A stretch of DNA of 64,000 nt from Hydrolagus colliei (GCA_035084275.1 CM068760.1:7688001-7752000), one strand, 5' to 3'; counted from the stretch's first letter, positions 431 to 63,600 are shown. Notes: generated from the letters alone by a model not told the origin. Translations and numbers: made by a program.

Positions 431-1046
431 GCCAGTTCAGCCTGAAGGAGATTTTCCCCTCCCATTTACCCCCCAAATCTCCAAAGGAGATTCAATTGAA
501 ACGCTATTTTAACTTGTCAAGGAAAAAAACAAAAGGGTTAAACCCATCTCCTCAGCCCGGGCGGTGAGGAGATTGGGAAAAGCAGCTGCTAGATTTGTGT
601 GTGTGTAAAAAAAATTGCGCATCAGTAAGGCTGAGATTCAGACCTCTATGTGCTTGCTGAGGTCAGCTCATTTCCATTACACTGCAACCTGCTCGTTAAT
701 TAATTACTCATTAAACTAATCATAGCTGGTGTACTTCACATCAGGAGTCAGAGAGCATCCTGTAATTATAGGGAGGACGGCGGAGTACACTGCAGCGATT
801 GGGAGTGTCAGGGAGCACTGAATCATTAGCATGAGGCATTCCAGCAGGATGGTGAGTAAGTGAGCTGGACTGTGAGGGCAGGCGCTCTAATGATTGTGAG
901 CAACGCGGAAGGTCACATTATTGCTTGATATCCGTCGGTAATTGTGAGCGTGGGGCTGATCGTTCGCGGGCTTTTCATTCCTCACCGTAAATGGAGTCCG
1001 CAAATAGCTCTGGCCACGCTGTGCGCCAAGAAAACTTTCACACGAT

Positions 1047-1087
1047 GAGAGAGAGAGAAAGAGAGATAGAGAGAGAGAGAGAGAGAG
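1047..1087 (+). repeat. (GA)n microsatellite
   Basis: Imperfect GA dinucleotide run seen directly. Confidence 0.95.
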
Positions 1088-2677
1088 GCGCGATCCCGTA
1101 CGTAGGAACCAATTCTCAACACAAGCGGAGCAGACACATCATTGCGGATTTACCTGCTGGACCCTTTTGTTGACTTACACCAATTCATTAGAGGATGGAT
1201 TAGGTTTCGATATTCAAGTCTAGGTAAAAGCGAGCGCTGATCACTTTATCAATTTGGAAAGGGGGGGGAAAAACTAGTTTTGTGAACTTTGAATTAATCC
1301 CCTGAACCGTGGGCACAAACGGAACCTCAGTTTCTTACGTGTAATCACGGCCACACATGGATTAAACAGATCCTATTTAAACACTACACATTTACGTTCA
1401 TCGGCCATTATCTTAAAAGCCGGTAAACATGGCAAGCCACTTGACGCAAAGAAGTAAGCTTTGCACCGTATTAGATCAGAACTTTCTTTCTTTTAAAAAA
1501 TTAACCTGATATAAATAATTTTGCATCAGAGTTTGGTTTTTTCCGCCCACCCCCCACCTCCTCCCACATTTAGTCAAAAACATTTCGAGCAACTTTTGAG
1601 AAACGCCACTTCCTGCAATCTCCTCAACTCCCTCAGGGTTCTTCAATAAAGACTAGTAGAAGAAGATGGAGAAGGGAATGGAGGGCGAGAGGAGAGGGGC
1701 AATTGGGAGGGTTGAGGGCCCATGTGGTGTGTCCTGGTTTGGGCCAAATAACCTGTTTCCGAGCTCGTATCATTCTGCTTCACAACTCTGTCTAAAGCTC
1801 CTGCAATGTTAAGCTTATTTACTTTATAAAGCAGTGTTTGGTTGCTTTAACATGAGAGGGACCAAATCCGCCATTGCAAAGCTTTACACGCTTCCTTAAC
1901 TCACTTTATTTTTGTACAGCCAGTCTCAAAAATACCTCACTGCAGACAAGGATGCGGGGGGGGGTGGGAGGGGGGAGATGAGAGCACCTTTCCTCCTATG
2001 TTCTGCTTCTCTGAACTGAAGAATTTAACATGAAGTGGGAACAGCACAGGCAAATGTGTGTGTGTGTGTGTAAAAAAAATCATTGTGGACATCTTTGTGA
2101 TCAGTTGAGTCTTAAAAATAGAAGAGCTGTATAAAATATCGCTGCATCAAGCACTTGTTCCCAACAGTCAAAGGTAATTCCAAATCAGTTCACTCACGCC
2201 GAGCACTTTTTGGTAACACAATAAAAAAAAGGGAAGCGCAGATAATTGCTGCACTAACACAAGATCATTCTGAGCCACTCGGGAGAGCGAAGGGGTTTCA
2301 TTTCATCTTCCTACTCAGGCGGCAATGTGGAAAATCTATACATCACAATCCAGAGCATTAGTGATCATTTGGTGTTATGATGCTACTGTGCATTTAGTCA
2401 TCATTTTAAATACCTACATATATATATATACAGTCAATTCACATTACAGTATATTCTTTGAAGCGCTTTGAGACATCGATAAGATGTGAAAAGCCGCTAT
2501 ATCAAACGCGAGGATTATTTTAAAACGGTACTTCCTCTAAATGTAGCACCACAAAGCCTGACTGAGAGCCCACTTGGTTAAATGGAGACAGCTCCCTCTA
2601 TCCTGCAATCTCCCAACGGAAGTTTCCCCAAAGGTACATATTGAGCAAAGCAACAGAATATTACTTCCATCTCCATC

Positions 2678-2982
2678 GTGAGATCTGTGTTCGAATCCAG
2701 TCAGGTCAGGACGAAAACTTGGGCAAGTTTCCTTACTTCACACACACATACTCACATGCCTAATAATAATCCTTCTGAAAAAAACACACTAATAATAAAT
2801 TGATCATTTTCAATCCACGACTGTTTGTGGGGGACGCTGCTGTGCGCAATTGGCTGCCGCGTTTCGCCCACAAATGTACAGTCAATTCACTTTACAGTAT
2901 ATTCTGTGAAGCGCTTTGGGACATGGATAGGATGTGAGAAGCGCTATGTCAATGCAAGGATTATTATTGTTATTATTATTAT
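2678..2982 (+). mobile_element. tRNA-derived SINE (family A), 5'-truncated
   Basis: B box GTTCGAATCC, TTGGGCAAGTTTCCTTAC body, GCTGCTGTGCGCAATTGGCTGCC...AATGCAAGG(ATT)n tail; matches the copies at 13213 and 62094. Confidence 0.93.
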
Positions 2983-4356: not shown

Positions 4357-5105
4357 TTGATTAGCCCGGCTCAGTTGGTAGCATTCTCATCCTTCAGAAG
4401 GCTGTGGATTCAAGTTCCTTCCTCTCCAGAGATGCCATCAATAATAATAATAATAATCATAATCCTTGCATTTGATATAGCGCTGTTAACATTTTATCAA
4501 CATCTCAAAGCGCTTCACAAAATACACTGTCAAGTGAATTGACTGTGTATATTTGTGGGCGAAACTTGGCAGCCAATTGCGCACAGCAGCGTTCCCCCCC
4601 AACCGCCCACAAACAGTTATGGATTGAAAATGATAAATTTTTATTATTGTGTTTTTTTGGAGGGATTATTATCAGGCGTGTGTGGAGTAAGGAAACTTCC
4701 CCAAGGTTTCGCCCTGATCTGCCTGGATTCGAACATAGGTCTCACGCTTGTAAGGTGAGTGCTCTAACCACTGAGCTACAGGAGCTCTTTGGAAGACACA
4801 TTAAAACCGAGGTCCATTCTGCCTTAAAGATCGGGTGGCACGGTTCAAAATGAGGCAGGATTTTCTCTCAGTGCCCTTTGCATCATTGCGTTGGCTTGTT
4901 TTATATTTTATTCAGAAGGTTGTCAATATATTTGCTAATCCCCCCAAATAAAATTTACCATTCAATCCACGGCTGTTTGTGGGACATTGCCTGCCACATT
5001 CACCTTCAAAATATACTCATTCTGCTTTACAGTTAATCCTATGAAGTGCTTTGAGATATCTTCCGGTTGTGAAAAGACGCTATAACAAATGCAAGTTATT
5101 ATAAT
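4357..5105 (+). mobile_element. Older Deu-domain-type SINE split by a younger SINE
   Basis: tRNA-like head GGCTCAGTTGGTAGCATTCTC...GGATTCAAGTTCC (4368-4420). After the insert come the Deu-like TTAAAACCGAGGTCC... and the L2-type tail ending CAAATGCAAGTTATT. Confidence 0.65.
4440..4787 (-). mobile_element. tRNA-derived SINE (family A), full length
   Basis: Reverse complement has the GAGCTCCTGTAGCTCAGTGGTTAGAGCAC head, B box GTTCGAATCC, and an (ATT)n tail. Confidence 0.96.
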
Positions 5106-12475: not shown

Positions 12476-12476
<1 letters not shown>

Positions 12477-12534: not shown

Positions 12535-12536
<2 letters not shown>

Positions 12537-17472: not shown

Positions 17473-19642
17473 CAGTGAACAACAAAGTCTTTCCTGATGA
17501 TGCAGTGGTGGGTTTCTGCACGTGTCAGATAACCAAACAGAATCCAAGACACATTTAAGATACAATAAAAACAAACAAAAAATAAATAAACTGTTTCCAA
17601 GAAAACTGAACAAAAGATTCAAAGCTAAACGACTCAAATTGGATACAAATCCTCTTGCTTTGATTCCAGACCAAGTAAAGACATTAGATTTTGATGGCAT
17701 GGAGGAAAAAGCTATATACAAATATGATCAGACCCATTTCACAGCTGTGGAGAGGGGGGCTGATGGTGACATTATTCACACAAGCGTAGCTTACATTTCC
17801 ACCCAAGGTGAAGAAGCAAAACGACAGTGGGAGGCAGATATAAAAACCTATAAGGTAAATGAAGAAGTGGACGTGTTTTCCAAGTATCTAACAGTGCTAT
17901 AATTTGTTACTCAGTAAATATGCCTATGTGGGTGTTTGTGTCGATTTGAATTTGCGAGAATGTTTATGTGCAAGTTTGTGTTGTTGGCATGGTTTTTTTT
18001 TAGTGTGTTCCTCAGAGTTTCACAAAGCTGGAAATCGGATTACCTGCAGACTGGCATGTGAATTGTACTTAGACCATAATGGAACAGAAGCACATCCACC
18101 CCCTTCAAACACATAAAAACTTACAGCTATCAACCGCAGTTCATCTCTGGAACAACATCCACCGCATTCAGACGCAGTTCTCGTACAGAGGCAGGCAGGC
18201 AAGAACCCGTTGAAGGATTTTTTAAAAAAGTCAATCTGGGATTTTTTTTAAAAAAATTTAACCCGCTCAATTGAAGCCTAGTAACTCTAGAGAATTCAGG
18301 GAGAGCAGCTTCCAGCTGTGGCTGAAACCCAACAAGAAACAGCTGGTCGAACGCAATGTCAGAACTGTACACATTGTGTTCCTTAATCATTGCTGGTGAT
18401 AATTAAGGATTGGAATGAGTTTGATAATACCCCCAAAGCTGATCTGATGCCTCCAAATCCATAGCTTTATTGACGCGCCGCTTTAGGGAATGAGAGAACG
18501 TCCATTGCTTGGGTTGGAATCGCATTCCAACTTTGTGGCAGCCAAGTGTCATGCAAAACTCATCAAGTAGTCTCACCACCAATGAAGATAGTGGGGGTGG
18601 AGAATCAAATTGCGAACATGTAATTAGAGATCCACCTCAGAGCTACTGAGCTACAAAATTGGATATTTAAAACCATGAAAGAAATAAAATGCTTCGAGAT
18701 TACATTATGTAGCTACAAGCGCAATCAATGATTTAATACGATAAAGAAATTAACTTGCACTATGAACAGTTATGACAGATTGAACGAGATATGGGTGAAA
18801 TGCATTTGTATGGTTAAAGCTTCAAATCATCCTCATGTCCTTGAACAGATGGGAGAGGAGGTGGCAGGTACCAGCCTCCTGGTACTAAGAACATCTGTTA
18901 TCGTTAGATGATGCTAATTGCCAACCGATAGGGAATCTGTGTCTCTATTCATTGGGGGGTCTGCAGCAAATGGAGCCAACTGAATTAGATTGGTTCCAAC
19001 ACTTTCGGACGCAAATGGTTTTTTGGCACAAAGACTTGGCTCGAGTTCAAAAGGAAATGGTAAAAAAAAAAGAAAACTCTAGTGTGAAAAGGGGTCGTAT
19101 CTATGGAGCAGGAAACCTACCCATTATGCCATACAAGTGTAAATATTTACATCGGATATACATCCTGCATGGTCTAGAAATGGATAAGAGCATATACTAA
19201 CCCTATCTAACACAAAGGTAAACCTGAATGACGGATACATACACCCACGGATTAAAAATGGAACCAAGAGATGGTTAACTAAGCAACTTCAGAACTAAGA
19301 TGGACACCAGTTGACTATCCTGACAAACGTAGTAGACAACCTGGTACACTACAGGCACACCAGACCCATCAGCGCGAAAAGTCGCCATCTCTACACCAAG
19401 CCAGCACGAGCTCAGGTGTGTACGCTATGGGATATGTTGATATTGCTGAGCAATCACAGGACAAAGCTCTGGCGAGGAGTGGGTAGCAGTAGTGCAGGGT
19501 ATTGAGGGACCAGCTGGGTACAAGCAGAAACCCAAAGTGCTACAAAGCCACCGACTGAATTTGATATGGATGCAACCCTCAGAGGAGCTGTTTCCAAGTA
19601 GAAGCTACTGGATTGGTTCAGTGGGAGTTTCCATTGCATCAC

Positions 19643-20404
19643 AATAATAATAATATTAATAATCCTTGCATTTGATATGCATTTGATGCTTTTCACATCT
19701 TCTACACTGTGTTTCAAAGCGCTTCAAAGAATATACTGTGAAATGAATTGACAGCATATTTGTGGGCAAAATGCGGCAACCAATTGCACACAGCAACGTC
19801 CCCCACAAATTCTATGATTGAAATCATAGAATCCTACGGCATAAAAGGAGGCCATTCGGCCCACCTAGTCTGTGCCGGCTCTTTGAAAAGAGCAACTCAA
19901 TCCCACTGCCCAGCTCTCTCACCACACCTAACAGACCTGTTCTCCCTAAATAAAGATCTAATTCTCTTTTAAAAGCTGTTATCGAATCGGCCTCCACCAC
20001 CTTTTCAGGCAATGCATTCCAGATTCGAACAACCCGCTGAGTGTAAAAAATTCTCCTCACCTCCCCTCTGCTTCGTTTTGAAACTATTTTAAATCTGTGA
20101 CCACGAGTCACAGATTCGCCCACCAGTGGAAACAGTTATTCCTTATTCACCCTGTCGAATCCCCTCATGATTTTATAAACCTCTATTGGGTCTCCTCTCA
20201 ACCTTCTCTGTTCTAAAGAGAATAAACCTAGCCTATCTAGCCTTAACGTCCTTTCTATAGTGTGAATAACCAATTTGTTATTGTTTTTTGGGATGGCAGA
20301 TTATTATTGTGCGTGTGTGTGTGTGGCCCTGACCTGCCTGGATTCGAAACATAGGTCTCATGCTTGTAAGGCGAGTGCTCTAACCACTGAGCTACAGGGA
20401 TTCC
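19643..20404 (-). mobile_element. SINE family A split by a CR1 insertion
   Basis: Tail half at 19643-19823; head half at ~20268-20404 ending CCACTGAGCTACAGG. Confidence 0.9.
19824..20243 (-). mobile_element. Young CR1 LINE 3' fragment (ORF2 C-terminus + 3' UTR)
   Basis: ORF reads TRGHRFKI...RRIFYTQRVVRIWNALPEKVVEADSITAFKRELD, canonical CR1; GGGCCGAATGGCCT 3' UTR and ATTCTATG terminal unit. Confidence 0.96.
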
Positions 20405-25728: not shown

Positions 25729-25878
25729 GGTTGAATGATCTTTATTGACTGGGCATGCTCATGTTGTCCCTCCCATCCACACCCCACACATCCCCCCCCA
25801 CCAAAAAAAAAAGGCATTGGACAAAGTGACACATGAGAGATACCTTTGCAAAATCATGTCAGTGGCTATCAAGTAAAA

Positions 25879-25920
25879 TACAGATTAAATTGCTGAGTAC
25901 AGATTAAATTGCTGAGTACA
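25879..25920 (+). repeat. 19-bp tandem duplication
   Basis: TACAGATTAAATTGCTGAG x2.2. Confidence 0.9.
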
Positions 25921-28900
25921 TAAAATGAGGCAGGTCTGAATGGGGTAGAGTGGCTAAAGAAGGGATTTGAATGAGCGCTTTAGGATTCATTGTATCTTCC
26001 CAAATGGCCTGGATTTTCCCATTAAGTGCAAGGTGATTAATTACACTTGCAAATGATACCAAATTAGGAAAAGAGGGCAGGAGGAGTGGTGGTAGTGGGG
26101 GGGTGGGGGCGGTGAAATACTCATGAAATCAGAGGTGGCAGCCAGGATTTTACAGAAAGATTCAATCACTGCACGCAATCTTCATTGATAAATTGAAGTT
26201 GATTCGTGATTAATGCAAATACCGCACATGGAAAAGAAAAATAAGAGGTATATGTTCTTGCTAAGATTTTAAAGAACTACAGAAGCTTTCAAAACGTGTG
26301 CTTAACATTCATGCACACATACACAGTCATCCCACTTCACAGTAAATCCTGTGAAGCACTTTGCCACGTCCTCACAAAGTAAAGAGAGTTGTACCAAATG
26401 CAAGGATTATTATTTATATTGATAATATTATTGTGTATATTATTATTTATAAGACAATGGTTTTAAGGTTAAGACCATGGGAAACATTAGGCCTCAGAAC
26501 TATTAAGTTAAAAGCATCTGGTAACAATAGAATCAAGTGTGGCTTCAGTAACAGCCTCTCATCACCAAGTTACTCACACAAAATATACAGTCAATTCACG
26601 TTACAGAATATGCTGTGAAGAGCTTTGAGACGTCTCGAAAATGTGATAAGACCCTATCACATATATCAAATGCAAGCATTATTATTATGGGAAGAATGGG
26701 GGGGAAATAGAGGTCTGAGTTGGTGGAATTAAACTCCAGCAAAAGTCAGCACCTTTGGTACAAGGAGAACAAAGAGAGAACAAAGGGAAGCTAGGTTTCT
26801 TTTTGAATCCTGTCAATCTTACAATAACTCCCCAAAACAATACTTTTGAATAAAGCTCAGATAGCATTTAATATTCCTCACAACAAAGATGCTTTTGACA
26901 CACAGAGAGAGAGAGAAAGAGAAAGTACATCAACGACTGCACGGAAATTTGAATACATCTTTTTTTAAAAAACATTTAAAAAAAACTCCTCTCACAAATA
27001 GATTGATAATAGAACTCTGCAGAGAACAACTGTTACACATTATTCTTGAATGTCATGCCAATTTCATGAAAAAAAATTCCTTTTCCAAGCTTTCATCTCT
27101 TAAAACTTCCCCCAGAGAGATGAAACGGTGTGCTTGCAGACTAAACCATCCAATATTCTTGTGGATGGAAGAAAATCTGTAAACTTCATGCAGTAAACTT
27201 AATTGCATTGTTGCTGATTAAACAACAAAAATTACACTCCTTTAAATAATTTCCACCTGCTTTTAACAATTATACAAAATGATTTAGTGCTACAATTTTG
27301 AACAGGTTTAAAAAAAAATCAATGCTGATTCAATGGATAAGGACGACACAAAACACTAGATTATTCTTAACGTAATTTAAGATGTGTGCACTCGAACACA
27401 GTGAATGCCTAGTTTGACAACCTCTTCAGAATTTGATAGCATCACTGTAAGTTTTAATACACTGAACTTTAGTCACAGCCACATAAACTGCAGCATTTTA
27501 TTTGGTAAATGTGAACAACTTGCGAAATGTTCCGGGCATCTGTCAAATTACATCACAAGATGTCCTGCGTGTGTTCATTTTACTACCAAATCATCACCCG
27601 GTGCAAGCATTTTGAATTAAAATCACAAACTAAAAGGCTAAAAACCAATTGCAACAAATTATGCATCAGAAAAGAGCAATTAAACATTAATGTGCGGAAT
27701 CCAAATTCACAGTGAGCTTTAAGTTGCTCTTTGATTGTACTCGGGGAACTGCACGAAGCTGTCCTGTTAAACAGGAGACAGTTAAAAGCAAGTCAGCAAT
27801 ATGTCTATTAAAATAATCTCACACCAGGCCCAGAGGCAGCAACTTCTGCCTTCTTCCTTGATGCACTTTCATTATTTAAATCTTTAATATTACACAATAT
27901 TGTAAAGATAATGCAGAGAAAAAGGGCTTACTTCACATTGTAAGGGCAGCTGGGATTTGGGAGAACCCTTGTCAGAGAGGAAGCTGTTGCAGTGTTAGCT
28001 GGTTAGAATCCAGCAGTTACCCCCCAAGCCCTAAAGATAATAATAATATTATTATTCCGATTTTTAAAAAATTTATGTAGTCACTCCATCTGTGACTGTT
28101 TATGGGATCCTGCTGTGCCCAATTGGCTGCCATATTTCGCCCCACAAAATAGCACACAAGGTGAAGTTCTTTAAGGCGTCTCAACGACATGATAAGGTGG
28201 CTCTATCAAACACAAGGATTATTATTATTCTAACACAATTCATGCGTGTTGGCAGTTCAGCGCGTGTATAATAAGCCTTTACCGTTCGTCTATCAAATCA
28301 GTTACTCCACTTTACCGTACATCCTGAAGCCTTTTGAGACATCCTCCAGTGTGCAAGCCAGCAAATCAAATGGCAAGGATTGCCATTGATGTTATATTTA
28401 AGCTCTCCGTAGAATTCATTTGCCTAGATGTGTCGAGAGTAATCGTGGAATACAAAAATCAGAAGTGTGTCAACGATATTCGCAAGGTTCGATGCCATTG
28501 ATTTACTCTTGTAAATAAAAACAGCGACTTTAAATAAACTGATCCGGTCGAGTAAAATTCTTACCCACTTCCCTAGGTAGGGGCGAAAAAAATATATTTT
28601 AATTTTAAATTGTGACAATCAATTGCTTAAAAAGTAACAACGGAGTGAGTTTGCCTTCCAATATTCATCTAGACCAGAATTGACGATTGATAATTCAATA
28701 TACAATTCACAATGGTTGACCCGAGTTATTCCCAATTCCGATTTTAATTCGGAATGAATCCAAAATGCTCTTTCTTCGTGCACGTGACTGGGCTACCAAC
28801 AACAACTTTGATTTATATAGACGCCGGATCAGAGCGCCTACCACCAACTAGCTCACCAACAGAGTGGCATCCACAGCTGCCTGTAGGGACTATAAACCTT

Positions 28901-29149
28901 GTGCAAATAGAAATCTAACGGGAGAAATTTTAAATCTTTCCCATCCCCGTAACAACCGTAACAAGGACAAATGATGGTAGCTCTCACAGATATAGTAAAC
29001 CGGGCTCAATAAGTGACGGCTGATTCCTCGCCTGAATTTTGTCACACGAACAGGAAAAAATGCCCGGGCAGTGGTTGGCTGATCAGTGGGAGATTTCCGC
29101 AGGCAAGAGAAACAATCTATAGCACTGTGCAGACATTGTCTAGAGCATT

Positions 29150-32100
29150 GTTGGAATGCTGGGGTGCAACTGTGTCAGATGTACCAATCATAGCCGCATA
29201 AAGGACATCTGAGAGTAGATTGGGGCCTAGGGTAAAGCCACCCCCATCTATTCACACGCATTGAATTGGACCACAGGATCAAGAGATTGGTACTTTTTTC
29301 AGCCAACATCACAAGCTACGATATCACGCATCACCACTTGGTTAATGGCATAGTTCTTGTGAAATGCTGTTGTGAAGGTGAATGACAGGATGAGCTTTCC
29401 TTATAGATCTTGCACACCAGCTTCCACACCCCCCCCCCCCAACCCCCCCACACTTATTCCCAGCCAAGATCTGATAGGATCCAAGGTACGTGTAACTGAA
29501 GGGAGATTACAACCCTTATAATAGAAGCAGCGAGTGGGCAAGATCGCAGTCAATCTTACTTGACAGAGTTATTAACTTGGCATACTCAGCACTGATAACA
29601 CACCATTTGTTTGCCCACTGTCCAATTCCGTTTATATCTGCCTGGAGTGATGTGTCACTGTTTGTCTTGCAGTTGGGGGATTTAACCGCTGTGCGGAGGA
29701 TATCATCATCAGCAGAGAATCCATCACTCCTGATGACCTTCATCAGGTCGTTGATGAAGATGACAAACAGAGTTGGGGGTGGTGTGGGGGGGAGGGGGGG
29801 GTGCGATCCAAACATGTTGCCACATCGGATCCCGCCGCACATTATGGAATACCACAACACACCGGGTCATTTATCCCGTTAAACAGTCGCATTCAACGAG
29901 GACATCACATCAGTGGTTCAGCAGCTCATGAGATGTATTCGAAGACAACAGGCTCTCAATGGACTTTCGCTCCACTAGGTTTAAGACGCATGGCCATGCT
30001 GACAGATAGGCCTTCCGCTTTAAGTTATTGACTGGCCATTTTAGAGAATCTCTGGATCATGAAAATGGAGTCATCGATTGGTGAAGCTACATTGGTGACG
30101 AGGAGGCAATAGGTAGCCCAAAAATTCACATCTGTTTCGGATCCAATCGCGAAATTTAAAAACAAATTACCTTCGTAAAATTTTGATAAGTTTTAATTTG
30201 AAACACGGTTTTCTTAGCAGAAACCTCTATGAGGGAATTCAAGCCTTTGGTTCTTGAGAATTCATAAGAACTAGACTACAGCCTCTAGTCACTATGGTTT
30301 ACCCCATAAATAATTATCAGGCCAATTGCTGATAATTTCTCTGCATCCTTTTCACAAGATAGGCAGTGAGTTCTTAACTCAATGTTGAAAACAGATTTTG
30401 CCATCTTCCAACAGGCTTTGGCGTACATGTGTGCAAGACCATCTCTCAAGACTTGTATTCAGAGGTGTGGGGAGAGAGAGCGGGAAATTGGGATTAGGAT
30501 TGGCGGTTTCTTGGAAGGCATAACACCGACAAATAATAAACAAAAGGGCCAAATGGCTTTGTGCGTACATAAATTTCTACGGTACAATTCATAACCAGGC
30601 ATTTCTCGTAATAAGACCAGAGTCCTGCATGTTCCAACACCAACACAATCATTCTGGCAATCTGACATCAGTTAATTTGCCAGTTTGGCCCGGCGCCTTG
30701 TTCACCTATGTTTTACCGCTGTCTCGCAAGTGACATGGTGAGTGTCAAGTCAAAACAACCCTTGCGCTCCCTTAAGTTTTCTCTCGGCAAAAAGTCCAGC
30801 CCTGCAATTGAATTTTTTAATATATATATATATATATATATAAACCTCCCATGTGGTGAGGTACTCCGAAATTTATGCATTTATGTGTATTGAGCTTCAA
30901 TGTACCAGTCGTGATGGCAGCCCAGAATGCATGCTCCCTATCAAGCTCCCTGACGCAAGCCCCCTGACCCCTGCCTCTTCCCGTTCCACACTCGGCTCTT
31001 CCCACACCCGGGAATCAAGAGAGATGTGAAACGACCGTGGGATTTGTGTGCGAGGCACAAAAAACAATGATCGGTGCGGTCAAAAGAATCCGAATTTAGT
31101 GCTCGCTTTAGATTCGCAGGCTGTGAATACAGTCCGGGGATTGATTTCAAGCAGTGCTCTGTTCGGAATTTAAATACGCACAGGTTTTTTTTTGCCTGTA
31201 ATCATTTGCAAAGGAACATTACACATGATTAAAACTGTTGTGAAAGTAATATAATTAAGATGGAGCAGCTTTTCATCCTTTTGACAGCATGATAAATTAA
31301 AAGACTGCGCGTCCCTATAGCAGCACACTCAAAATTCTGAAATTATAACTGGGTTATGTGTTTAATAAGGACACACATATGGAGCCAGATTTTCTGAGGT
31401 ATGAAGGATTGTGCTGCACTTGCTAAATAGCCTTAAGGAGCAATCCATGACTTTCAGTGGTCGATATAATCCACTATCAATATTGATTAATCAGTGGTGT
31501 GTTCGCTAAACATTCGCTAAATATAAATATTGATAACATATTTTCTTAAAAGTCGTATGCTTGCAGCAAAATTCCTTCGCAAATTGCTCAATTAGGTTAC
31601 CGACAGGGCAAGGCTGAGGCGTTTCTGCTGAATATTGATCATCGTCAAGCCTGACTCGAGTTTCAGGCTTGATCAGAAACCCTTTCATCGTTCTTAAGGC
31701 AGAACTTTTCCTTCTCAAATCGAGGGCAAGATGGAAAAATATCGCTTTCTTTAGTCTCAACCTTGGGTGGATATACCTTTTAACACAAAGGAGCGGGGAG
31801 GTTAAAGCGCTCTAAATATGCTACCACACATAAAAGGGGACAAAATCATTGCAAGTGTTTGGTTAGAGGAACTGCATATATGGGGGATAAACACTTATGA
31901 GGCAGCCAACTGTGCCCAACAGGGAGAGTGGGGGTTGTTTCTACTTGGTCTGTTTTTCACACCTCTCCTCCTCATCTCTCCCAGCTCTGTCTCATCTCAC
32001 TCCCTTGCCAGCCATTCGGTGGTGGGGGGGGGGGGTGTGGGGGGTGATCCTGGGATTGGTCTCTCCCAGGATCACTCACTCAAACCCGGTACTTGGACTG

Positions 32101-34380: not shown

Positions 34381-35009
34381 TTGGCAAAATTCTATTATTG
34401 CACATTAGGCACACTGAGTGTCTGTTTATAACAGACATACTCATTTCCCTTTCATAAGTAGTTTTCAGTCCAACACCAAACGCTTAGTATTCATTTTATT
34501 GCCTCTCTCCTGTAAATTAATGGAATGTTTGTGTTGAATGCTTTGTTTACTAAGGGATCAGCAAGGCAGACAGACTTCATCTATAGAGCTAGAAAAAGGT
34601 TTGTTTAATATATTGCCAATATTGTACGTTGTTTTCTGATTAAATGTAATTGTCTCATAACTATTTTGCAGAAAAAGGCAATCCACGATTATTTAATACT
34701 AAAACATAAGGTCAGAGGACCATTGCCACATAAAACAAAGAGCGAATTTTCTCCAAATGCACATCTGTCCGAAACACTAAATATTTCAAAGAACCTTTGC
34801 TCAACGCTCCTAAATTGTCCCGGCCCCATTTAAGGTTTTCCCAGAAGTGTATACACTTATGCCTGGTGTTTATCAATCAAGTCAGCCATTGGATGGCAGG
34901 CAGGATGAAAAACAACAGAACATGAAGACATACAAATTTATGCCTGCGAAAATCAATTTTGAGTGGCAGACACCAGGATATATTTTTATCCACCACCCAC
35001 CCCCCACCC

Positions 35010-35190
35010 CAAGATGGTGAATAATGACTGGAACGCATTACCAGGAAGGGTGGTGGCGCCCATCACACTGGGCTTGTTTAAGAAACAGCTGGATGCTGTG
35101 ACGGGGCTGATGGGAAGGTGAGTATTGGTGAAGGATGGGATTAAACAGGCCAAACAGCCTTGGTGTCATCCAAATTGATATTGTATTGAT
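35010..35190 (+). mobile_element. CR1 3' fragment
   Basis: TGGAACGCATTACCAGGAAGGGTGGTGG..TTTAAGAAACAGCTGGAT (WNALP..FKKQLD). A similar fragment lies at ~45080-45320. Confidence 0.85.
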
Positions 35191-36977
35191 ACAGCCCTGA
35201 TGGGGAAATTATACCAACCCCACAAATCTGCTTCTGCCCATTGTCCCTGACAGCTCCAATGCATCTTGGCACTGCACTGACAATGGCTAAATTTGCTTTT
35301 TTTTTTCATGAACGACAGCATATTTTAAGCCTTTTGTGACATTAAATCCGTACGGTTGCGCCATGCAATTTCACTTGCAGGACTTGTATCTTCCTTGATA
35401 AAATAAAATACTAGGATTACTGTATCCCATCTTTGGGTCTGCCATTAGCATCTTTGCCTCCATTGCTGTGACATTTCATCTCCTGGTCTGTACATTGCTG
35501 AATCTCCTTCCATTTACTGCCGCTCTAGGTATGCATTGATGTTTGCTGCCTCTGTTCCTACAACACCCTAATCTCATAGTCTACCGTGGCCTTCGTTACC
35601 ACAGTAACTCATCTCCGGTTCTTAACAGTCAGATTGGTGGTAAACACAATTAATTAGGAATGTGCCCAAGGCAAATCCAGCTAGTCCAAAAAGCCACGAA
35701 TACAAAAGATGCATCATGTCCAACAGCTCGGCTGTTCCCTCGCATGACAGCAAACAACCCACAAATACTAGGAACCCTCTGCGTAAAATAACAGCTTCAG
35801 TGCTGAGAAATGACATCAGACTAATCCCACACGAAAATAAATCCATGTAATGGAAAGTGATGACAGGGGCTGACATCTGAAATTTGGATGATTTAGAGAA
35901 TCCTGAACATTCAAGAAAATTGCAGGTGATGTGCAACAAGTTTTGGATTTTCTTTTTACATCTACACGGCTTTTTTTTTTTGGTGGGAGTGGGGAGTGGG
36001 GGCAGATGCCTGACACTCACGCAGGAGGCCAGGGCCATGCTTAACAATATCCCGATTAGGACTGAATTCCACATATTCCTGCCAAAATTCCTCATCTGGA
36101 ATGGTGTGCGCGCTGCCTTCCCAGAGGGACGTCAGCTTTTCTTTATATATAACCTCGTCCTGGAACATTTATGCACAGGTTGGCGAAAGCCACGGCTTGT
36201 GGACCCCAGAGGTGTATTACGGATACTGTTGGGAGTTTAACCAGCTAACGCTACATGCAATAGTCTCCCATTGTGTGTACTGTCTGACAAACCTTCCATT
36301 GTTTATCCAGTTAGGAACCATCCTATCCTTGAAGGCACAAATCAAGACCTGTCTCTTTGACCATGCCTTCAGCCAACCTCTTACCTCTCTGCCCTCTACC
36401 CACCCCCACTTATCTCCCAGCCTCCTTGATCCCAAACCCCACCATCACTCGAGTCCTAATCCATGGCTGTTCAGCGCCCGGGGACGTCCTCCCGACGTCC
36501 TCCCAACACAAAAAAAAACACTTAACAAATGTAAATTTGCATTGTATTGTTACTTTAGTTTGCTGGATTAACAGAAGCGGGAGTGAGAAGAAACCATGCC
36601 TCCAGTATTTTCTATTCTGGGAAAACATAATGCCAGACAAGCTTTGACAAAAATAATACCTGCATTACTGACTGACATTTTTAAAGGAAATATATTGGCC
36701 AGATTCAGTGCATGTCCAATCTGCACCACAGAATCAGCCACCGCAGAAAGGAGATAACTGGACTCATTGTGTCTATAATACATTGCCAGCATTCAACTGG
36801 AACCATCTCCTATACCACTTTCCTCAAAAGGTTTTACATCTTTATTCTGCACTTTAGACTTCATCTAATTCTCTTTTAAATGGTGTAATTGATTCGGATT
36901 CAATAGCCACTTGTAGCAATACATGATGTGTCCAAATCACCCTTTGTGTGAATAAAAAAACTCAAACTTCGAGAATA

Positions 36978-42299: not shown

Positions 42300-45200
42300 C
42301 AAACTAAACCATTCTTTACGGTATATTTGCAGAACGTCCATCCTGTAACGTATCTCGTCTTCAATGCGAAATGCACTATATGGCTTTGCTTGCTTTGATT
42401 CTACGTTATTGGTGCATCGGAATCCAGAGTTAAGACCTCGAAGGCTCAGTTGAATTAACCAGCTTTATGTAATTGCGAAATGGAAAGAGGTCGAAAGTTG
42501 GTGGGAGGCGTGGAGAATATTGATGCTTCCATTTCGCACATCATCCAGCCCTATGGGTCTTCAAAGTGAAGGCAGCCAACTTCAGTGGCAATTAATGTTG
42601 GGACTATAAGGACATTAATGCTGTGCAAAGATAGAAAATGTAGAAACTTTCAACACAATTTGTCCCATTGCACTTGTCCAGTCCTACTTTTTAACCCCCT
42701 TTTTCAACTAAAGCCTTCTCCTCTCACATCCATGCCATGATCTGCTCTGCCTTCCCTCACCTCCATAACATTGACCGACTTTGCCATTACCTTGCCTCTC
42801 AGGCCGCTGAAACTCTTTATTCATGCCTCCATTGCGTCCAGGTGATTCAGATCTTTTGAATGATTTGTTTGATTAAAAATACAAACGCTACCTGATTTGA
42901 GATGTCAACGCACACCGTTAAAGGATCAAATACAAGAGATTATTATCATTATTACTATTCTTATTATTATTATTGTTATCATTTTTATGGGCACAGAGAG
43001 AAGCAGATGCTTTGAGAGGTTAGCGCCATGTTTGACACAATGGATACAGGGTATTCTTGCTGTTTTACCGCAGATCTTTTGGTTCTGACTTATGTGCAGT
43101 ATAAGTATGTAATTTATCAGTGTCCAGCAACAGACAATTCAGTCCAGAGAATCAGCTACTGTGGCAACTTTAATAGCACTGAGCTAATGAAATAATACAG
43201 TGGTGGACAGCTCTCGTACATTCAGCACTCCGAACCTGGCATTTTAACAAAACTGAATTAGATTTTTTTTGTTTAAAAAAAAGAGATCCACTTTTTGTTT
43301 TCCCAAAGGATAATTGTTCAGGAATGACGTCTTTTTTTTTACACCAATCTGTGATATACCATGGGTTATGGGTTGATGCTTTGATCACCAGTGGCATCCT
43401 TAAAATTGTTGCTCAAACAACTGAGATCGGTGCGTGTGAGCAGATCTCTGGAGGGTTGAGTTATTACAACTGCGAATAAGAACCCTTGCATTTGATATAG
43501 CGCCTATCACACCAGGATGACATCCCAAAGTGCTTCACAGTAAAGTGGAGTAACTGTGTGCTTTGTGAGTGAATGTGGCAGCCAATTGTCCCACAGACAG
43601 CCATGGAATGACTGACCAATTTTATTTGGGCGACTGTTGGTCAGGACATTGTTAGAAGCTCTCTTCTCTTTACGGATATCAACAGGGTATTTTTAACCTC
43701 CATCTGAGAAGGCAGACAAGACCATGGTTTAAAATCTCATCTGAGGGACAGACATCTCATCCAAAGGATCTCAGATTACATCAAGGAATGGGCATTTATA
43801 AATCTTCTTGCAAAATATTGCAGAATAAAGTCCCAAAGTTGAGTGAATGTGGCACGTAATACTTAAATCATGCATTTGATGTAACAATTATAATGTTGAA
43901 ATGTCTCAAAAGCAATTGCTGTCAAGTGTATTTGTAGGCCAAACTGGCAGCCAATTTGCATTCAACAAGGTACGACAAACATAATTTACCTGGATGATTG
44001 TTGTCCGGGATATTGGAAGAAACTCCCATTTCTTTTCAAACACTGCCTTAAATAGATGGGTGGGCAGTAAAATCATTTAACTTCTTATCTGTAGGACACA
44101 CAGCTCCGATAATGCAGCACTCCTCCCAGCCTAGATTGTGAGATCAAAATCCTAATGTGGGGTCCTTGACTCAAGAGGCGAGAGTACCAGCAAGTTGTCA
44201 TCCTTGAGAAGATTAAACCAAGCCACAGATCCCAAATCAACTGAGGTACTGTACTTAAGACGGAGAGAGAAAGGCAAGCGCATTGAGGTACATGGCGAAA
44301 AATCCGGGAGATGAGATTTGGAAAATAAAAAGCTGTCATGAAATTAATAAAATAGTCTTGAAGGCTTGAAGAGTCACAAAATCCGCACAATTGGTGTGGA
44401 ATGAAGACAGGCTCGTTGTTCCATCTGATCCCACGTCTCCAAAACAACAACTTACCATGTGCGGCTGTGTGGCCCACGTATCTCCAGCGAAAGTGTGCAA
44501 ATGACTCCAGGTACTGCTTATCATGCAATCCGCCAGCCTAACTGACATCTGTCAGCCCCAAAGCAGGCGTCTCTCTAGTGAAATGTGCTTTAATGCTACC
44601 AGGAGAGTCGTGTTCTGTCAGATGATAACAGAGAGGAATACAAAGCTAAGTGCAGACTGCTGCGTGGACACAGGGGGAACGTGGTGTTATGGTCCCTATG
44701 GAGCGAGAAACGGGGAAGATCTTTCTGGCTTCATCGTTGAGCATCGCCTTTAGAGAGGAGGAAGAGAAGCGTTTCGCCATGCCGCTCTCCCTTCAGGCGC
44801 TAGAGCCCGGATGAAAACGGGAACTGTGACCGCCGCCGTCACGTAAAAATTACGATAGGGTTTAAGGCAACAATTGGTCCGAAGACCTACAGGCTGAGGA
44901 GTTAAGCATCTCAGTCACTGGCTTTCGGAGTTCTGATCCTCCCATGGCTTCCAGATCGGGTTTTTAGAATTACTATTGCCATCTTCTACAAGAGCATAAA
45001 AAAAACTTCTGACTGGACGGAGAAAAAGGGCAAAGGATGACAAAGTTCTGGTCAACTTGTGTTCGTCAACTTTTGACAAATAGCATTTCTTCTTCTTGAC
45101 ATAGAGGGTAATTAGGTAGTGGAACGCATTGCCAGGAAGGGTGATTGAGGCCAGGAAGCTGAGATTCATTTTGAAACAGCTTGATTGTGTGATGGAATGC

Positions 45201-45790
45201 TGGGGGTGGGGTGGGGGGGGCGAGAGGAGTGAGGGGAGGTGGATATTCTGAAGGGATAAGAATAGATGATCTGAAATACCTGTTTCATCCAAACCAACCC
45301 TGTTTTCCTGTAATTTTTTCCACCTGGTCTCGTCAACAAGGAAACAAATCCGAAACTCAGCCCCCACCGCCCTCCCCACAAAAAAAATTCCATCGTTCCT
45401 TGTTCTCGGAGAACCACATCAACAGCCATGAAAGAAAAAAAAAGCACCAGTCCTAAGCTTGTATTTCCCCTTTCCCTCTCTATTAATGTATTTTATGTCA
45501 CAGGTGGGCATCTCATTTCCCACTTTCATCTAATCTGAACTGTGCAATCATGTGTTTCTTGACATTAATGACAATCCTAAGATATGTAATATCTCAGCCT
45601 CCAAAATGCACGTACTGTACTGTATTTCTTTATTGCTGATGGGGGGAGAAAAATTGCAGTGCAGAGCTTTCTGCTGGCAGCGAAATTTGCCCCAACAACA
45701 TTGTGAGTTTCCCAGTAAACAGGTGTGTAGGGGTGTCAAGGTGGAGTGTAACTGCACGGCTGAAATGGCAATAAAGCAACTCGACAACTT
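42300..45790 (-). mobile_element. Ancient CR1/Crack-like LINE ORF2
   Basis: HKLTRTL..SFFY..NSKNPIWK, ISLERRLLWG*QMS, HDKQYLESF, IPHQLCGFCDSSSLQD, LSLSVLSTVPQ, KYYVPHSLNFGTLFCNILQEDL (~43865-43797, GVPQGSxLGPLLFxIYINDL), ITDWCKK..GKTK, KICGKTAR, SLVFDPLTVC..IQK, APIT*NQ. Confidence 0.75.
43478..43770 (-). mobile_element. Older Deu-domain SINE
   Basis: L2-type tail plus the Deu-like GGTTTAAAATCTCATCTGAGGGACAG; a head-side fragment of the same type lies at ~44090-44192. Confidence 0.75.
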
Positions 45791-49930: not shown

Positions 49931-49979
<49 letters not shown>

Positions 49980-52629: not shown

Positions 52630-55600
52630 ACTGAATGTTGAAGATCAACACTTTTCTCAATGCTGCTGTAGTTCTGCAAGCCTTGATGGTTGAATACGAG
52701 AGGATGGTTGAAGCTGGCCTTATGCCAGCCATGTGTGTTGTCATTTGCTTATCTGCGACTGGAGGGTGTACGAAAGCCTCAAAGATTACAAACGAATAAA
52801 GGAGAGCAGCACACACCGGTGAACCTGGGAAGAGCCTGACCTTTCTGCCAACGTATCTGTCATGTACAGCGCATTCCGCAGATTTCATGCATTTTACACC
52901 AAATTCATTTCTTATTAGGGTAAAGACATGTTGCTCTTAAAAGAGTTGATTTCATTAGCCGTGTCAACTATACCCAGAGAGCCGGTGTCGAATCTGCAAG
53001 GAGATAATAAAATTCCTGTTTCGCAGCTAAAATGCCCTGCAGCAGTTTTGACAATTTACATACAGAAAAGGAAACGCATTTTAATTTGCCGTGAGCGTGG
53101 ATGTGGGATATTTTTCAAGCAGCGAAAACTCCACTGGCCCCAGGTTGGATCGGAACCAAATTGGAACGAACCATTCTGCACAAATGTATCCACTGAAGAA
53201 CAAATTAAGTATCGGACATGCAGTTTCCGCACAGGGATCAACTTGTTCCTGTAGTTCGCCCCCTATTCCCTTCCAACATTCAAAATCCAATATAAACGCC
53301 TGACTTTTCAACTGTACTTTTAGTTACCTCCCACTCCCCAACTCAGGCTCCCAGTTATCTGAGTGACACTCTTTGACGTGTCCAATCGCTACAAAAGGTG
53401 CCATATTAACCTAAACTCTGGTTGTTCAGACCGAAACCATGAGAGCCTCCAATGTGTGTATGGTTTGGCAGGTCCTCCCGACGTGAAAGGCGCTCTATAA
53501 ATGTAATTTTGTTGTTGTTGTTGTGGGTTACGGCTCGCAAGAAGTTCTATTCTGTTGCCCTGGGAAGTATGCAAGGTGTCAGTATGAGATGAGTAAATAT
53601 GCCTGGTGAGGTTACGAATTGGTGTGTAGACAATGTTTTATTGTTTAAAATGGTCAGTAGATAGATCTCCCCGGCTGATGTGGAGAGGTAATTTGATTTG
53701 GAAAAGGTTGGAGACCATTTTAGACAGGAACCTCAGTCAGCCTTTTTTTTTTCACACAACGCCCCCCCCGTCGTCGTCCCCGTCCCCGTTTACACCAATG
53801 TGGACCTTCCCCCTGGACTAAAGTGTAATGGTTTTTCTAGACAAGTAATCAGCATCCCGGGGTTTGGAAAACCTGTCCCAGAATTTGAAAATTTCACCCA
53901 GCGTTTGTCTGACAGATGAATCGGAAAATGTCTGGTCTGGTCACAGGGCTGACGTGGCAGGGGATAGGAACGTGGGAAGGTGTTGACGTTCATTTTTTTG
54001 TATATTCCTCTGGCGTGGCACTTGTGCAAGGTTTAGTCACTGCACGTTCTCTGGCTGGGAAGTAGACAGGAAATAGATGACTCTTTACTTCTGGCTCTTC
54101 CTTGCAGTTGCCGATGATTAATGAAGGCTATTTTTCTCCAAGTCTCATTCTGTTACCGTCAGAGTTAAGTGGGTTGCAGACAATAACAAACAAGCAACTG
54201 CCTTGGCCTGGGGCAGCCAAGCGCAAACCTGGGCACAAATCATATGCGACGTGTATAGTCAAAACACATGGAAGTGGAAATGCAGCTGCTGGACAAGGGT
54301 TTGGGTTAATCCAGAGAGGCAGAGGGAATCGGCTATCTGAAAGGGATTTCTCCTGTGAATCTACTGGAGGGTTTAATATTTCAAGGATTTTTCATGCCGT
54401 TCAAACCATTAGCGGAATTCCAAGTCACAGCTATGTGTTGTTCCGTCCTGGCAAGTCGAGGGAACACCATGGTAGGGTCCAAATGGATTAGCCAATGCCC
54501 GCAAAGAGAGACTTGTTACGCAATGGACATTTAAAGTGAGGAAGTGGGTGATAGTAAATGGTTAGTGAGTCAGTAAAAGCAAAGATTTTTTTTGCTTCTG
54601 AGATTCTCAACAATGTGATAATGCACGATATTATCCACAAATATATTTCACCCACAAATCTACAGTCAATTCACTTTACAGTATATTCTGTGAAGCACTT
54701 TGAGACGTCAATAATATGTGTAAAGCGCTATAGCAAATGCAAGGATTATTGTTGTTACTAAAGTAACCTGTTGCAGGTATACCCAGAAATACTGTGGTCC
54801 TAATTTGAGGACGTTTCTGAAGAGGATAACCCAACAAGGAATCCAAGTCTCGGAACCCCTTCTAGTAGTCAGAAATATCTCGTATTCAATATTGAGTTCC
54901 CACTAGAGCGACAGGAATTCACAGTAGTTGGGAGTTGTCGCTTTCGAAGGAATATCTAAGCAAGTGGTTCATTGAAACAGATTCGCAGATTAAAGTTTTC
55001 TAAAATTAGATATTGATTTATTATTAGTAGTAGTATTTATTTGCTTGTTTATTTAATTGATTAACATAAAGTCTGGGACAATACAGAAGATTTATAAAGA
55101 ACTAAAACAGAAGCAGGATGCAGACCTTGAATCTCACAACATTAAATCAGTTCACATTGAAAATTAACTGCGCAGGGAGGAGTGGGTACACAAAGCCCAG
55201 TGTTTAAGCTGGTTAAAGGGAATCAATCATTTGACGTACAGTGACTGCAATATTTGGGGGACAAGAAAACAAAGATTGGTTTGGGGAAAAGGCAGTCAAA
55301 GAACCAATGACATGATACAAGTTAAAGTACACTGTATGTGATCAGTACAAGGAGATCTTTATATTTTGCTTGGTCAACTAGAAAGGACTATCACCTGATG
55401 CAGTAAGTATTGACTCGACTCAAGCATTTGAAAGGGAACTTAATTAGTTCCTGATTCAGCAAAGAGGAGAGGATATGGATTTGGGTTAGGGAGCAAATGA
55501 AAAATGGTCAAATGGAGCTGGATAATTGACGAAGCTATATATTCGTTTAGCAGCTTTTTCTCATTCTTTGCTGCACTCCGGGACAGGATGAGATGAAGAA

Positions 55601-59755: not shown

Positions 59756-62093
59756 TGGTTTCCTCCACTGAGTTGCAGCTGTTTCTGTCAGTCACTCTCC
59801 TTAAATTGGCAAACAAAGAATTTGTACATTGGAGTTGTTGTCTGTCTTACAGGGCTCAATGATAGACAACAGGATAATGATAGCATAATGATCTTTTCTT
59901 TTTCCCCCAGCATTAATGATGTTTTCTGGTTTAAGAATACTAAATATTGGATTACCCCCAACAAACAGACTCGTGTCATTTAGATTCCCATCAGGTTTGG
60001 AAATGAGTTTAATTAAAGCAGTAAGCTATTAAACAGTGCTGATCAAACCACAATGCAAATGTTTGTATTCCAAACAAATTCATCTTAGCATTCACAGCAG
60101 TCTCTGGCTGTCAGGGCCGCTGTAAGGTTTGCTTGTTGCTTGTCAAAAGCGTATCAGAATGCAGTCACCTCGAAGTGCCTTTTAATGAGTTGTACAACCG
60201 CAATGTTAATGGAAAAGGTAATGACATTGGGAAGTGTGGGGATGGGGAATGATTCAGGGAAGCGATGACATGGGACGATGGGTTGACACTGGAGATGGGA
60301 TGAAACCGGCAATCGAATGGGATGCAATGACATTGGCTATTTTACGGAATGACATTGCTGCTACTGCGACTTGACACACTGCAGCTATCCTTCCACGGAC
60401 ATTGATATTTTCATGTCCATTGATAGGACACCCCACCTGTCACAGTGTCCTATCAATGAAAATATTAATGTTTCTAAACCGTATCCATATTGTACTCAAT
60501 GATAATCGGAGAAATAACAATCACGCTCGCAACTCATTACAGCTGAATGTACAAATGGTCTATTGTTTAATATTCAAAACAGTTTGGAAACACTGCCCTA
60601 TTAAATTCTAATGCTACTTACAAGTACAGCAGATTAAAATAGGATTGTAAATCTGGTACATTGTGACAGGAGCCACACATGAAGTATGATGCAATTTTGC
60701 ATTGAAAACCAGAAGGCATAAAATAGCGGAGAAAGCAGTGATAAATATTTAGTGCTACATGGTGGAATTTATGTATATATACATATATATTTTATATATA
60801 TGCACATTTTTATTTCTGTCTCTTTGAAAAAATCAGCACATGAAACTATTAATTTTCTGTGTCTCTAAATCTACATGCATAAGAACAGCACTGGTCCATA
60901 TTTTCAAATATTAGGTATCTAGGGATGGCAAGATCCACAATAAACATGACACAGATTTAGAATTGCATTAGACTTTCAGTGCCTCTTCTTAAACCCGTCC
61001 AATTTTTGCTTCGCCTGAAAGAAAGGAACGTTGGCAGTTTTCAACTAGATAGAAGTTGTTTTAAATAACAGATAGTTAACATCTTACCAGAGGCAACATT
61101 CACCGCCATTAATTAACAAATAAAGGCAGGTGGATTCATCAGATTGAAATCAATGCTTTTACTGGGCTACTGTACTTCCTCACTCACTACTTTCCTTGGC
61201 TGTTTGAGAATGTGAAATTGACTGATGGAATAGTAGCAGAAATGGTCAATGTATTTAAGAGGAACTTTGATGTCCATTGTCAAGGTAGAGTGGGAATAGA
61301 AGGTTAGGAGGGAGTCTTATTATTAATAATATTGGTAGTAGTATTATTAGGATGATTGAGGGCTCGAGCGAAGTGTAAACACCAACCTGAACTGCTCCTG
61401 TGATGTATATATATAAATAGGTCCATGTAATTTTATGCACCACTGACTTATCAGGTAACCTGTTATCAACTGCCAAGGCTCCCAGTTTTTGAGTCTTTGA
61501 CATGTGTGTTCAGTTAGCAACAGATCCACAGTTTCTACTCTCATCCACGAGTTCTCACTGTTTCCAAGAGGAGGTGAAAATTTGAAGCCCCCTCTTTCAT
61601 TTCTTCCAAGTTTTATCATGGCTTCCTATCGTACTGAGAGCAGCGTCGCTTTGTGCAAATTGACAGTTGAGCCAATCTTGCTTTCCTTGCCAATCGCCAG
61701 TCAGCAGGTTTTTTTTAAAAAAATATTTCCCCCGCCACCCTCCGTCTGTTAATTAGCAATCAGTCAAAGTTTTTAAAAAATTGGCGGGTGTCTCAATTTC
61801 TTTTGGCACATTTGAAGTTGTCCTGGAATAAACATTTATTTACATTCCAGAATAACAATCCTGTGAGACTGATGGTGTGTGTGCGAGAGTGAGCCTGGCT
61901 GGAACTCCCTTCCTCACTCCCTTCGCCTCGGCCCTTCTCTTGTCCTAGTTTCAGGTCTCGGCTAAAGACCTATCTTTTCGGTCTTTTCGAACACCACGCC
62001 TTCGGTCACTTTCTCCCCCTGCCCCCTGGCTCGGGCATGGGATCCATTATTGTGAAACGCCCTCCCGGCGTGGAGTCAGGGCTCTATATATGT

Positions 62094-62438
62094 GGAGCTC
62101 CTGTGGCTCAGTGGTTAGAGCACTTGTCTTGCAAGCTGGGGAGACCAAGCTGGGGAGACCTGTGTTCGAATCCAGGCAGGTCAGGGCGAAACCTTGGGCA
62201 AGTTTCCTTACTCCACACGCCTAATAATAATCCCTCAAAAAAAAAAATAATAATAAAATTGGTCATTTCAATCCACGACTGTCTGTGGGACGCTGCTGTG
62301 CGCAATCAGCTGCCGCGATTCGCCCACAAATATATACAGTCAATTCACTTTACAGTATATTCTGTGAAGCGCTTTGGGACGTTGATAAAATGTGGAAAGC
62401 GCTGTATCAAATGCAAGGATTATTATTATTATTATTAT
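62094..62438 (+). mobile_element. tRNA-derived SINE (family A), full length, inserted in an L2 tail
   Basis: Intact A and B boxes; 14-bp internal tandem duplication; host L2 tail runs ~61890-62093 and resumes at TAAATCCAAG(TTG)n. Confidence 0.97.
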
Positions 62439-62639
62439 ATAAATCCAAGTTGTTGCTGTTGTTGTTGTATGGCAAGAGGGGGAAGAGACAACCTGAAATT
62501 GGCCCCAATGAGATTCACTCAATGTGACGAAACCAAACTTTGTGGCCCCTCCAAAAAAAAACATCTTTCCCCTGATCCCCAGAACAAAATTGACAGCCGA
62601 TAACTTATTATTATTAACAGCTGGCAAAACATATGAAAG

Positions 62640-63600
62640 CTCATGTCTACCAATGACTTCAAGGGAAGCCTAAGGCATCAATTGTAATGGAGGTGGACAG
62701 GTGAGCTGTGAGGGGTTCTGGATACATCTCTCTCAGAGCCCAGTGCCTCGTGTCATTAAAGTGCATTTTCGAATGAAAGGGCGGTGGGAGGAACATGGTG
62801 GGTGGGGTGGGTGTTGAGGTGATGTGTCGGGGGGAAGAGAGAGAGAGGCAGAGGGAACTGAATTAGTCTAAGTGATTAACCATACAGGGATATTATAACT
62901 CAGATGGGAGCAGATTGACTGCAGCTTTCTCTTCACCTAACGACTGTGCCAGCATTTTAAACACCATGGAGTCACCACACTGATGGTGTTGATTAATTTA
63001 AAGCTGTTAGAGACAGAGGACAGTCGGCAAACCATCAGTTAGTTACAGCTGCTGTCGCTCCACATTCCTGCCACACATCTGCTTCCAGCTCAATTAGTCA
63101 TCTGTCAACATCTCCACCAGCAAAAGAGAAGTACATTCTCTCACCAGGATCTGAAAGCAATTCATTTCTCCACGCTCTCTCTCTCTCTCCTGTGGAAGGA
63201 CAACCTTTTTTAAGCTCACTTTAATTATCTTCCCTCCGGGCTTGGTTTAAACAAAACCGTTGTTGCTTCGCACATGCGAAAGGGAAAGTTAGGGGGAGGG
63301 TGGGAGGGGAGGAGGAGAATAAAAAAGAGGGGTATCCATTAAACACTTTCTTTAAAGTTACACTTATCCCTCAGACCGCTTCAGTCGAACTTGTCGATTT
63401 TCGCCACGGCTATTCCATTGCTGTAAATATAACTCAAATCTAAAATAATCCTCCTGTGCCAAGTGGAAACTGTAGAAGGTTTGTTCCGGATTGTAATTGA
63501 AAGGCTCTGGATCTTTATGGCTGCTGGAAGCAATGGTTAAGGTTTGTAACTGGTTGAGTAATCCTCCTATCGTTTGGTAAAAGCAAATTGCTTAAACACC
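62640..63600 (-). mobile_element. Degraded Crack/CR1-like LINE RT region
   Basis: NHCFQQ, IILDLS..KFD*SGLRDK..ESV, NELL..YFSFAGG (NDL..LFADD), N*WFADCPLSL (WFxxNxLSLN). Confidence 0.55.

Follow-up and report, generated by a model that had tools for sequence, protein, structure and literature searches.

The closest described system is the chimaera genome itself. Frith (2022; PMC9004415) dealt with protein fossils of transposable elements (TEs) in 'Lagerstatte' genomes, which evolve slowly, and the part of that paper drawn on here gives 105,995 such fossils in chimaera, 31,098 of which (29%) are absent from RepeatMasker. With a genome of 910 Mb, these figures correspond by arithmetic to a density of about 7 fossils in 64 kb, with about 2 lacking annotation. 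Tables 4-5 of the same paper, which concern human data, indicate that CR1, Crack, RTE-X, Dong-R4, and Tx1 fossils persist from early vertebrates. The elephant shark genome, in the portion of Chalopin et al. (PMC4350176) used here, is described as rich in short and degenerate elements and dominated by LINEs and SINEs. Its SINE2-1_CM is a tRNA-derived SINE that shares its 3' end with a major LINE, CR1-2_CM (PMC1845163, PMC3747384). Another relevant lineage of the CR1 group is Zenon, known from elasmobranchs, coelacanth, and hagfish and distinguished from all other CR1-group elements by its poly-A tail (PMC13343379). Chimaera is not named as a Zenon host in the accessible part of that paper, and a literature search brought up no title about a Zenon from chimaera.

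Here, we analyse a single window of vertebrate DNA, probably from a chimaera, by which we mean the whole stretch of 64,000 nt. The content of the window closely matches the density expected from the published Frith figures. The approach is also like that of Frith, in that DNA is compared with proteins by a frameshift-aware search, a reversed control is used, and the object is the same; no difference from the accessible part of that work is shown. As in the elephant shark, an abundant tRNA-derived SINE carries a LINE-shared tail; the likeness to SINE2-1_CM and CR1-2_CM is one of arrangement only, and those elements each account for 7-8% of the genome in elephant shark, and the SINE makes up 11% of the window. 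The presence of a few decayed LINE fragments in chimaera DNA is a phenomenon already known. The window is, in our judgement, likely to be ordinary, mostly non-coding chimaera-type DNA with layered dead retroposon insertions and few fossils, in which reading by eye leads to an overcount.

Retroposon families and other features of the window

The window has 42% GC and a CpG observed/expected ratio of 0.52, and its 48 stop-to-stop ORFs of at least 100 aa reach at most 236 aa. Nucleotide family models were built from copies within the window, and the reversed window, used as a control, gave no match to any of them. In nhmmer searches the SINE model produced 51 hits (7,228 bp), the L2-like tails covered a further 3,044 bp beyond the SINEs, and CR1 3' ends gave four hits (1,139 bp), so that the three together occupy about 11 kb. 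Non-family DNA amounts to 51,546 bp, of which 49,353 bp remain after the 2,193 bp of low-complexity DNA are also subtracted. The main features are collected in Table 1.

Table 1. Positions, strands, and supporting evidence of retroposon-derived features and candidates
Feature	Position	Strand	Evidence
Representative full-length tRNA-headed SINE, ~345 bp	62092..62438	+	family model; 3' tail common to L2-like tails
Longest L2-like 3' fragment	36099..36558	+	nhmmer family, 0 reversed-control matches
L2-like 3' fragment	14338-14568	-	nhmmer family
L2-like 3' fragment	16827-17039	+	nhmmer family
L2-like 3' fragment	22960-23227	+	nhmmer family
L2-like 3' fragments, two copies	33058-33538	+	nhmmer family
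L2-like 3' fragment	36974-37249	-	nhmmer family
L2-like 3' fragment	52049-52443	+	nhmmer family
L2-like 3' fragment	61891-62092	+	nhmmer family
Young vertebrate CR1 3' end: ORF2 C-terminus and 3' UTR, one in-frame stop	19828..20249	-	tblastn E 3e-44
Older CR1 3' end	34979..35174	+	leave-one-out nhmmer E 0.001
Older CR1 3' end	36738..36970	-	tblastn E 4e-5; leave-one-out E 0.02
Older CR1 3' end	45006..45293	+	leave-one-out E 1.4e-4
Possible very old CR1 3' piece	55379..55444	+	28.2 bits vs control maximum 22.3 (3 controls), C. milii CR1 query
Second short repeat, copies	4782-4930, 5747-5895, 20587-20785, 43597-43768, 43988-44138, 56522-56635, 58862-59063		nucleotide family model
Fossil A: decayed ORF2 of the CR1 group, from RT core to thumb	29132..30250	-	protein search and profile scans
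Fossil B (probable): N-terminal part of CR1-group RT	63335..63703	-	same broad reference group as Fossil A
Candidate, vertebrate-CR1 RT motifs by eye	25814..26252	+	27.2-27.4 bits, E ~0.3 per window; E ~1.9-4.9 in other runs
Candidate, CR1-group RT N-terminal motifs, colinear	19100..19550	-	29.0 bits, E ~1.4; outside top hits in two other runs

The SINE has a tRNA-like head, and all three Rfam tRNA matches lie in SINE heads. Its other end shows homology to the 3' end of a LINE: in a pairwise alignment, a SINE tail and an L2-like tail match over ~75 nt, and the SINE and L2-like family models cross-match each other. SINE copies longer than 90 bp (n=36) share 70-95% identity with the consensus of the family, a spread that points to insertions over a long time span. 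The LINE tails are called L2-like on the strength of their translated C-terminus. A 113-aa open frame at 32778-33119 (-), the first part of which is L2-like tail DNA, has no match in Pfam or PDB and is compatible with chance.

The only protein match of the young CR1 3' end is a Callorhinchus milii UniRef entry, to whose CR1 part it is 72% identical. This match and the elephant-shark-like pairing of SINE and LINE tails make a chimaera-type source probable. When ten CR1 3' candidates were subjected to a leave-one-out nucleotide test, four were recovered at E<=0.02 and one at E 0.13, and five had no match. The test recovered neither the possible very old piece nor a by-eye CR1 3' end at 9255-9690 (-), which is cut in two by a SINE at 9298-9590. 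In a C. milii 'Ig-like' entry among the references (P0002; UniRef A0A4W3GVX2), the first ~125-140 aa are a CR1 C-terminus, which is probably an artefact of the gene model.

A second short repeat, older and ~200-260 bp long, gave 8 hits (1,043 bp) and none in the reversed control; it is possibly an older SINE core. The window also holds an inverted repeat whose two 48-bp arms (25575-25622 and 25634-25681) match perfectly and are separated by a loop of 11 nt; it lies within a 171-bp element at 25558-25742, whose flanking direct repeat begins with 14 identical bases and resembles a target-site duplication. Presumably a similar palindromic repeat occurs in shark genomes. Read from the sequence, an exon-like segment of 185 nt at 17670-17854 (+) lies in a 133-aa open frame, with a pyrimidine-rich AG acceptor on one side and an AAG/GTAAAT donor on the other; it has no match in Pfam, PDB, or the ESM Atlas. 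An ATG...AG/GT at 270-279 is phase-compatible with this segment, and on account of the two the window may lie inside a host gene.

Frameshift-aware search for reverse transcriptase fossils

Strict LINE motif counts are similar in real and reversed DNA. Pfam detected no reverse transcriptase (RT) or endonuclease in 29 ORFs out of the 48 with at least 100 aa, in one X-read frame, in 300 of the 329 stop-free segments of 55-99 aa (the other 29, beyond 58.3 kb, being outside the scan), or in 21 X-read frames from 7 candidate blocks. There is no RVT_1 match even for Fossil A, the clearest fossil of the window, so that the Pfam negatives carry no weight and, together with the motif counts, call for a better test. 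PDB searches with pieces of the window returned nothing relevant.

The stop-free piece 29519-29866 (-) of Fossil A served as the first query against 1.84 billion proteins. Its best matches led to ~120 CR1-group ORF2 proteins and two LINE-bearing contigs, one of the CR1 group and one that we take from its translation to be I-like. From these references, codon-level frameshift-aware profile aligners were built in best-path and sum-over-paths versions. Controls were the reversed window and 14-30 shuffles preserving local composition; Markov nulls ignore local composition and overstate the excess. The reference set covered CR1-group and I-like proteins, with vertebrate L2, RTE, R4, and Tx1 ORF2 outside it, and its seeding with Fossil A favours the lineage of that fossil. 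During reference retrieval, a plasmid tblastn gave 13 matches, 9 of them annotated as group II intron RTs, and none was used. Intact eukaryotic LINEs were seen at L001 3088-6675 and L002 93-4148, short contigs ascribed to MAGs of bacteria, where they are probably host contamination.

The power of the scan was estimated by simulated decay in 30 trials, using profiles from which the element in question had been removed. At 0.4 substitutions/site, a 600-nt RT piece reached at least 27 bits in 100% of cases for the CR1-group element and in 83% for the I-like one; at 0.5 substitutions/site and 300 nt, 77% and 43% were detected. With such power many CR1-group or I-like RT fossils would have shown up, and RT fossils of CR1- or I-type in a dense layer are excluded up to ~0.4-0.5 substitutions/site. 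Outside these two types power is low: scored on L1 ORF2p, an intact CR1-group ORF2 gets only ~70 bits, and on R2 proteins 33-36 bits, the latter meaning that the profile scan has little power for R4/RLE elements. Loose gap costs allowed shuffled DNA to reach up to 56 bits; looser gap costs and post-hoc chaining brought more noise and added no block.

Fossil A is interrupted by stops, frameshifts, and one low-complexity insert. Its stop-free piece has 19 matches at E<=0.001 (best 4.9e-6), 17 of which contain RVT_1, and the best match also has an APE domain. With standard gap settings Fossil A reaches 66-86 bits, and the best control scores are 31-35 bits; the initial protein search was unbiased, and the alignment runs past the seed piece on both sides. 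Judged by protein similarity, Fossil A is certainly an old CR1-group RT fossil. Its 5' limit near 30.25 kb was set by single-protein alignments. The alignment ends short of the APE region and no APE endonuclease was found upstream of the RT, which would fit 5' truncation. At the other end it stops near 29.13 kb, and a short GTT-type tail on the same strand, at 28792-28833, may come from another insertion.

The references closest to Fossil A belong to an invertebrate/protist-type CR1 lineage (the P0003/P0023 group), whose ORF2s score 70-76 bits, as against 45 bits for a frog CR1 and 23 for the I-like element. Against moth proteins that we take to be Zenon-type, Fossil A scores only 24-27. In an RT tree that contains no labelled Zenon it falls within an open 26-row group, on a long branch (1.97) and with no starred set. 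Taken by itself, the idea that A and B record an extinct Zenon-like CR1 lineage in chimaeras is a tentative reading, which we regard as rather unlikely, though more likely than the wider version of it considered below. The lineage of Fossil A is possibly the sole new detail of this locus.

Fossil B scores 37.0 bits by the best path, where the highest of 14 shuffles has 34.8 and the reversed window 30.1, and has an E of ~0.07 by sum-over-paths. Other settings give E ~0.27, 1.2 (mix profile), and 3.6, and owing to these weaker values it is graded a probable, not a certain, RT fossil. Below these two lies a band of weak hits. At 28 bits or more there are 8 real blocks, A and B included, versus 2 in the reversed window and a shuffle mean of 2.4 (maximum 4 among 14 shuffles); in another run, at 26 bits or more, there are 4 versus 0.53 in controls. 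With an excess in two runs, the number of real fossils is probably above two. The sum-over-paths scan, however, confined the excess over controls to A and B, and at 24 bits or more the counts converge (20 real, 17 reversed, 17.0 mean shuffled). Perhaps at most ~3-5 further blocks are real. Weak hits that recurred at 17.66-17.90 and at 44.6-44.9 kb fell on differing profile regions from run to run and were therefore treated as composition effects.

Apart from RT, profile scans for APE gave a best match of E ~1 per window, none above noise. Sparse motif chains for RTE, RLE, APE, and generic RT, a low-power test, yielded best E values of 0.23-1.5 per window and nothing beyond shuffles. By clade, the best RTE-type RT/C-terminal chain, from motifs of low power, had E 0.53; for R4/RLE the best low-power chain had E 1.5 and a CCHC regex found 0 in the window; and for L1/Tx1 the generic RT chain gave E 0.23, again at low power, while one frame at 18.0-19.64 kb had no PDB match. 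By-eye L2-, CR1-, and RTE-like candidates were seen, for example, at 42.68-42.85, 48.78-49.10, and 8.38-8.68 kb, with matching references not in the library. Among the clades named, support in these comparisons is limited to CR1-group lineages.

Extent of the fossil layer and its interpretation

A sequence-only reading of the window had held that most of its 'unique' DNA consists of eroded LINE fossils, with APE, RT, and RLE motifs in about 14 blocks from about five clades. Its core survives, since Fossil A and probably Fossil B are eroded LINE fossils hidden in such DNA and invisible to Pfam, but not its scale or diversity. A and B together account for 1,488 of the 51,546 non-family bases (2.9%); the six weak hits add 1,627 bp and thirteen by-eye intervals 2,724 bp, which brings the most generous sum to 5,839 bp, or 11.3% at most. 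Two blocks are supported instead of about 14, a comparison of totals since that reading listed no coordinates, and in the frameshift-tolerant search, made with CR1/I-type references only, most blocks do not rise above the reversed and shuffled background. The RT motifs are borne out in A and probably in B; APE and RLE gave no signal beyond controls, the RLE test being of low power. As for the clades, the supported pieces all belong to the CR1 group, and the others were probed only by the low-power motif test.

The window shows how readily by-eye reading through stops and frameshifts creates motifs. The reversed window, in which no real ORF can exist, itself yields colinear RT-like strings; one of them has a GVPQGS-like motif and agrees at 12 of 26 conserved columns, compared with 14/32 and 6/17 for real borderline blocks. 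Moreover, TGA and TAG (3,803) are commoner than TGG (2,167), so that taking stops as Trp lifts chance Trp matches 2.75-fold. The by-eye candidates at 19.1-19.55 and 25.8-26.25 kb looked persuasive yet failed to clear the controls.

Some further readings have to be weighed against this. If most of the unique DNA were LINE debris of about five clades, eroded past detection by CR1/I-type references, the excess of weak RT hits, the plausible by-eye motifs, the degenerate elements of the elephant shark (PMC4350176), and the early-vertebrate clade fossils in the available part of Frith (PMC9004415) would all be accommodated. We consider this highly unlikely, because supported, weak, and by-eye pieces together fall so far short of the non-family DNA, real and control blocks are nearly equal in number at 24 bits or more, and there is no excess of APE or of RTE/RLE motif chains and no gain from chaining. 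Equally doubtful is its boldest form, in which more than half of the leftover DNA is LINE debris past ~0.5 substitutions/site, including RTE/RTEX, R4, and Tx1, and A and B represent an extinct Zenon-like CR1 lineage in chimaeras that is shared with sharks and predates the holocephalan-elasmobranch split. At the opposite extreme, chance might explain all but the obvious SINE/LINE tails and Fossil A, as the E of 1.2-3.6 for Fossil B in some settings would allow; this is improbable given that Fossil B stands above 14/14 shuffles and the reversed control, and that the 28-30 bit band is in excess.

Between these lies the reading that 10-15 short real LINE fragments of several clades make up 10-25% of the unique DNA. 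The CR1 and L2-like 3' ends, A, B, and the weak band already total that many fragments, and some by-eye candidates would belong to clades outside the reference library. Half of the CR1 3' candidates, however, went unmatched in the leave-one-out test and another was matched only at E 0.13, and the sum-over-paths excess stops at A and B; we hold this reading to be possible, though on balance doubtful.

The preferred reading, of ordinary DNA with layered dead insertions, would account for the window as follows. CR1-group LINEs copy by target-primed reverse transcription, and the copies are usually 5'-truncated. This mode of copying makes 3' ends dominate, and a 3' bias is indeed observed, in that the multiple decayed LINE pieces of the window, which lie on both strands, are mostly from the 3' end. 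CR1-group LINEs would have been inserted in this way, and a tRNA-derived SINE that took an L2-like LINE tail would have become the most abundant repeat; the shared tail is observed, and mobilisation through it is likely. Each copy would then have gathered substitutions, frameshifts, and stops under neutral decay, and SINEs and microsatellites inserted later would have broken it up. Two older RT-bearing fragments, A certainly and B probably, and perhaps 3-5 more, would remain readable, and most other by-eye 'blocks' would come from free choice of frame together with stops taken as Trp. Roughly 45 kb of the window would lie outside this retroposon account.

Should readable LINE debris make up most of the 'unique' DNA in chimaera, the repeat content of slowly evolving vertebrate genomes would be badly underestimated, and the early vertebrate mobilome could be read one locus at a time. 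The present window displays a smaller, published version of this picture, with a few fossils in 64 kb, of which standard annotation misses about two. Within it, the range of Zenon-like CR1 elements could, through the lineage of Fossil A, come to include chimaeras.
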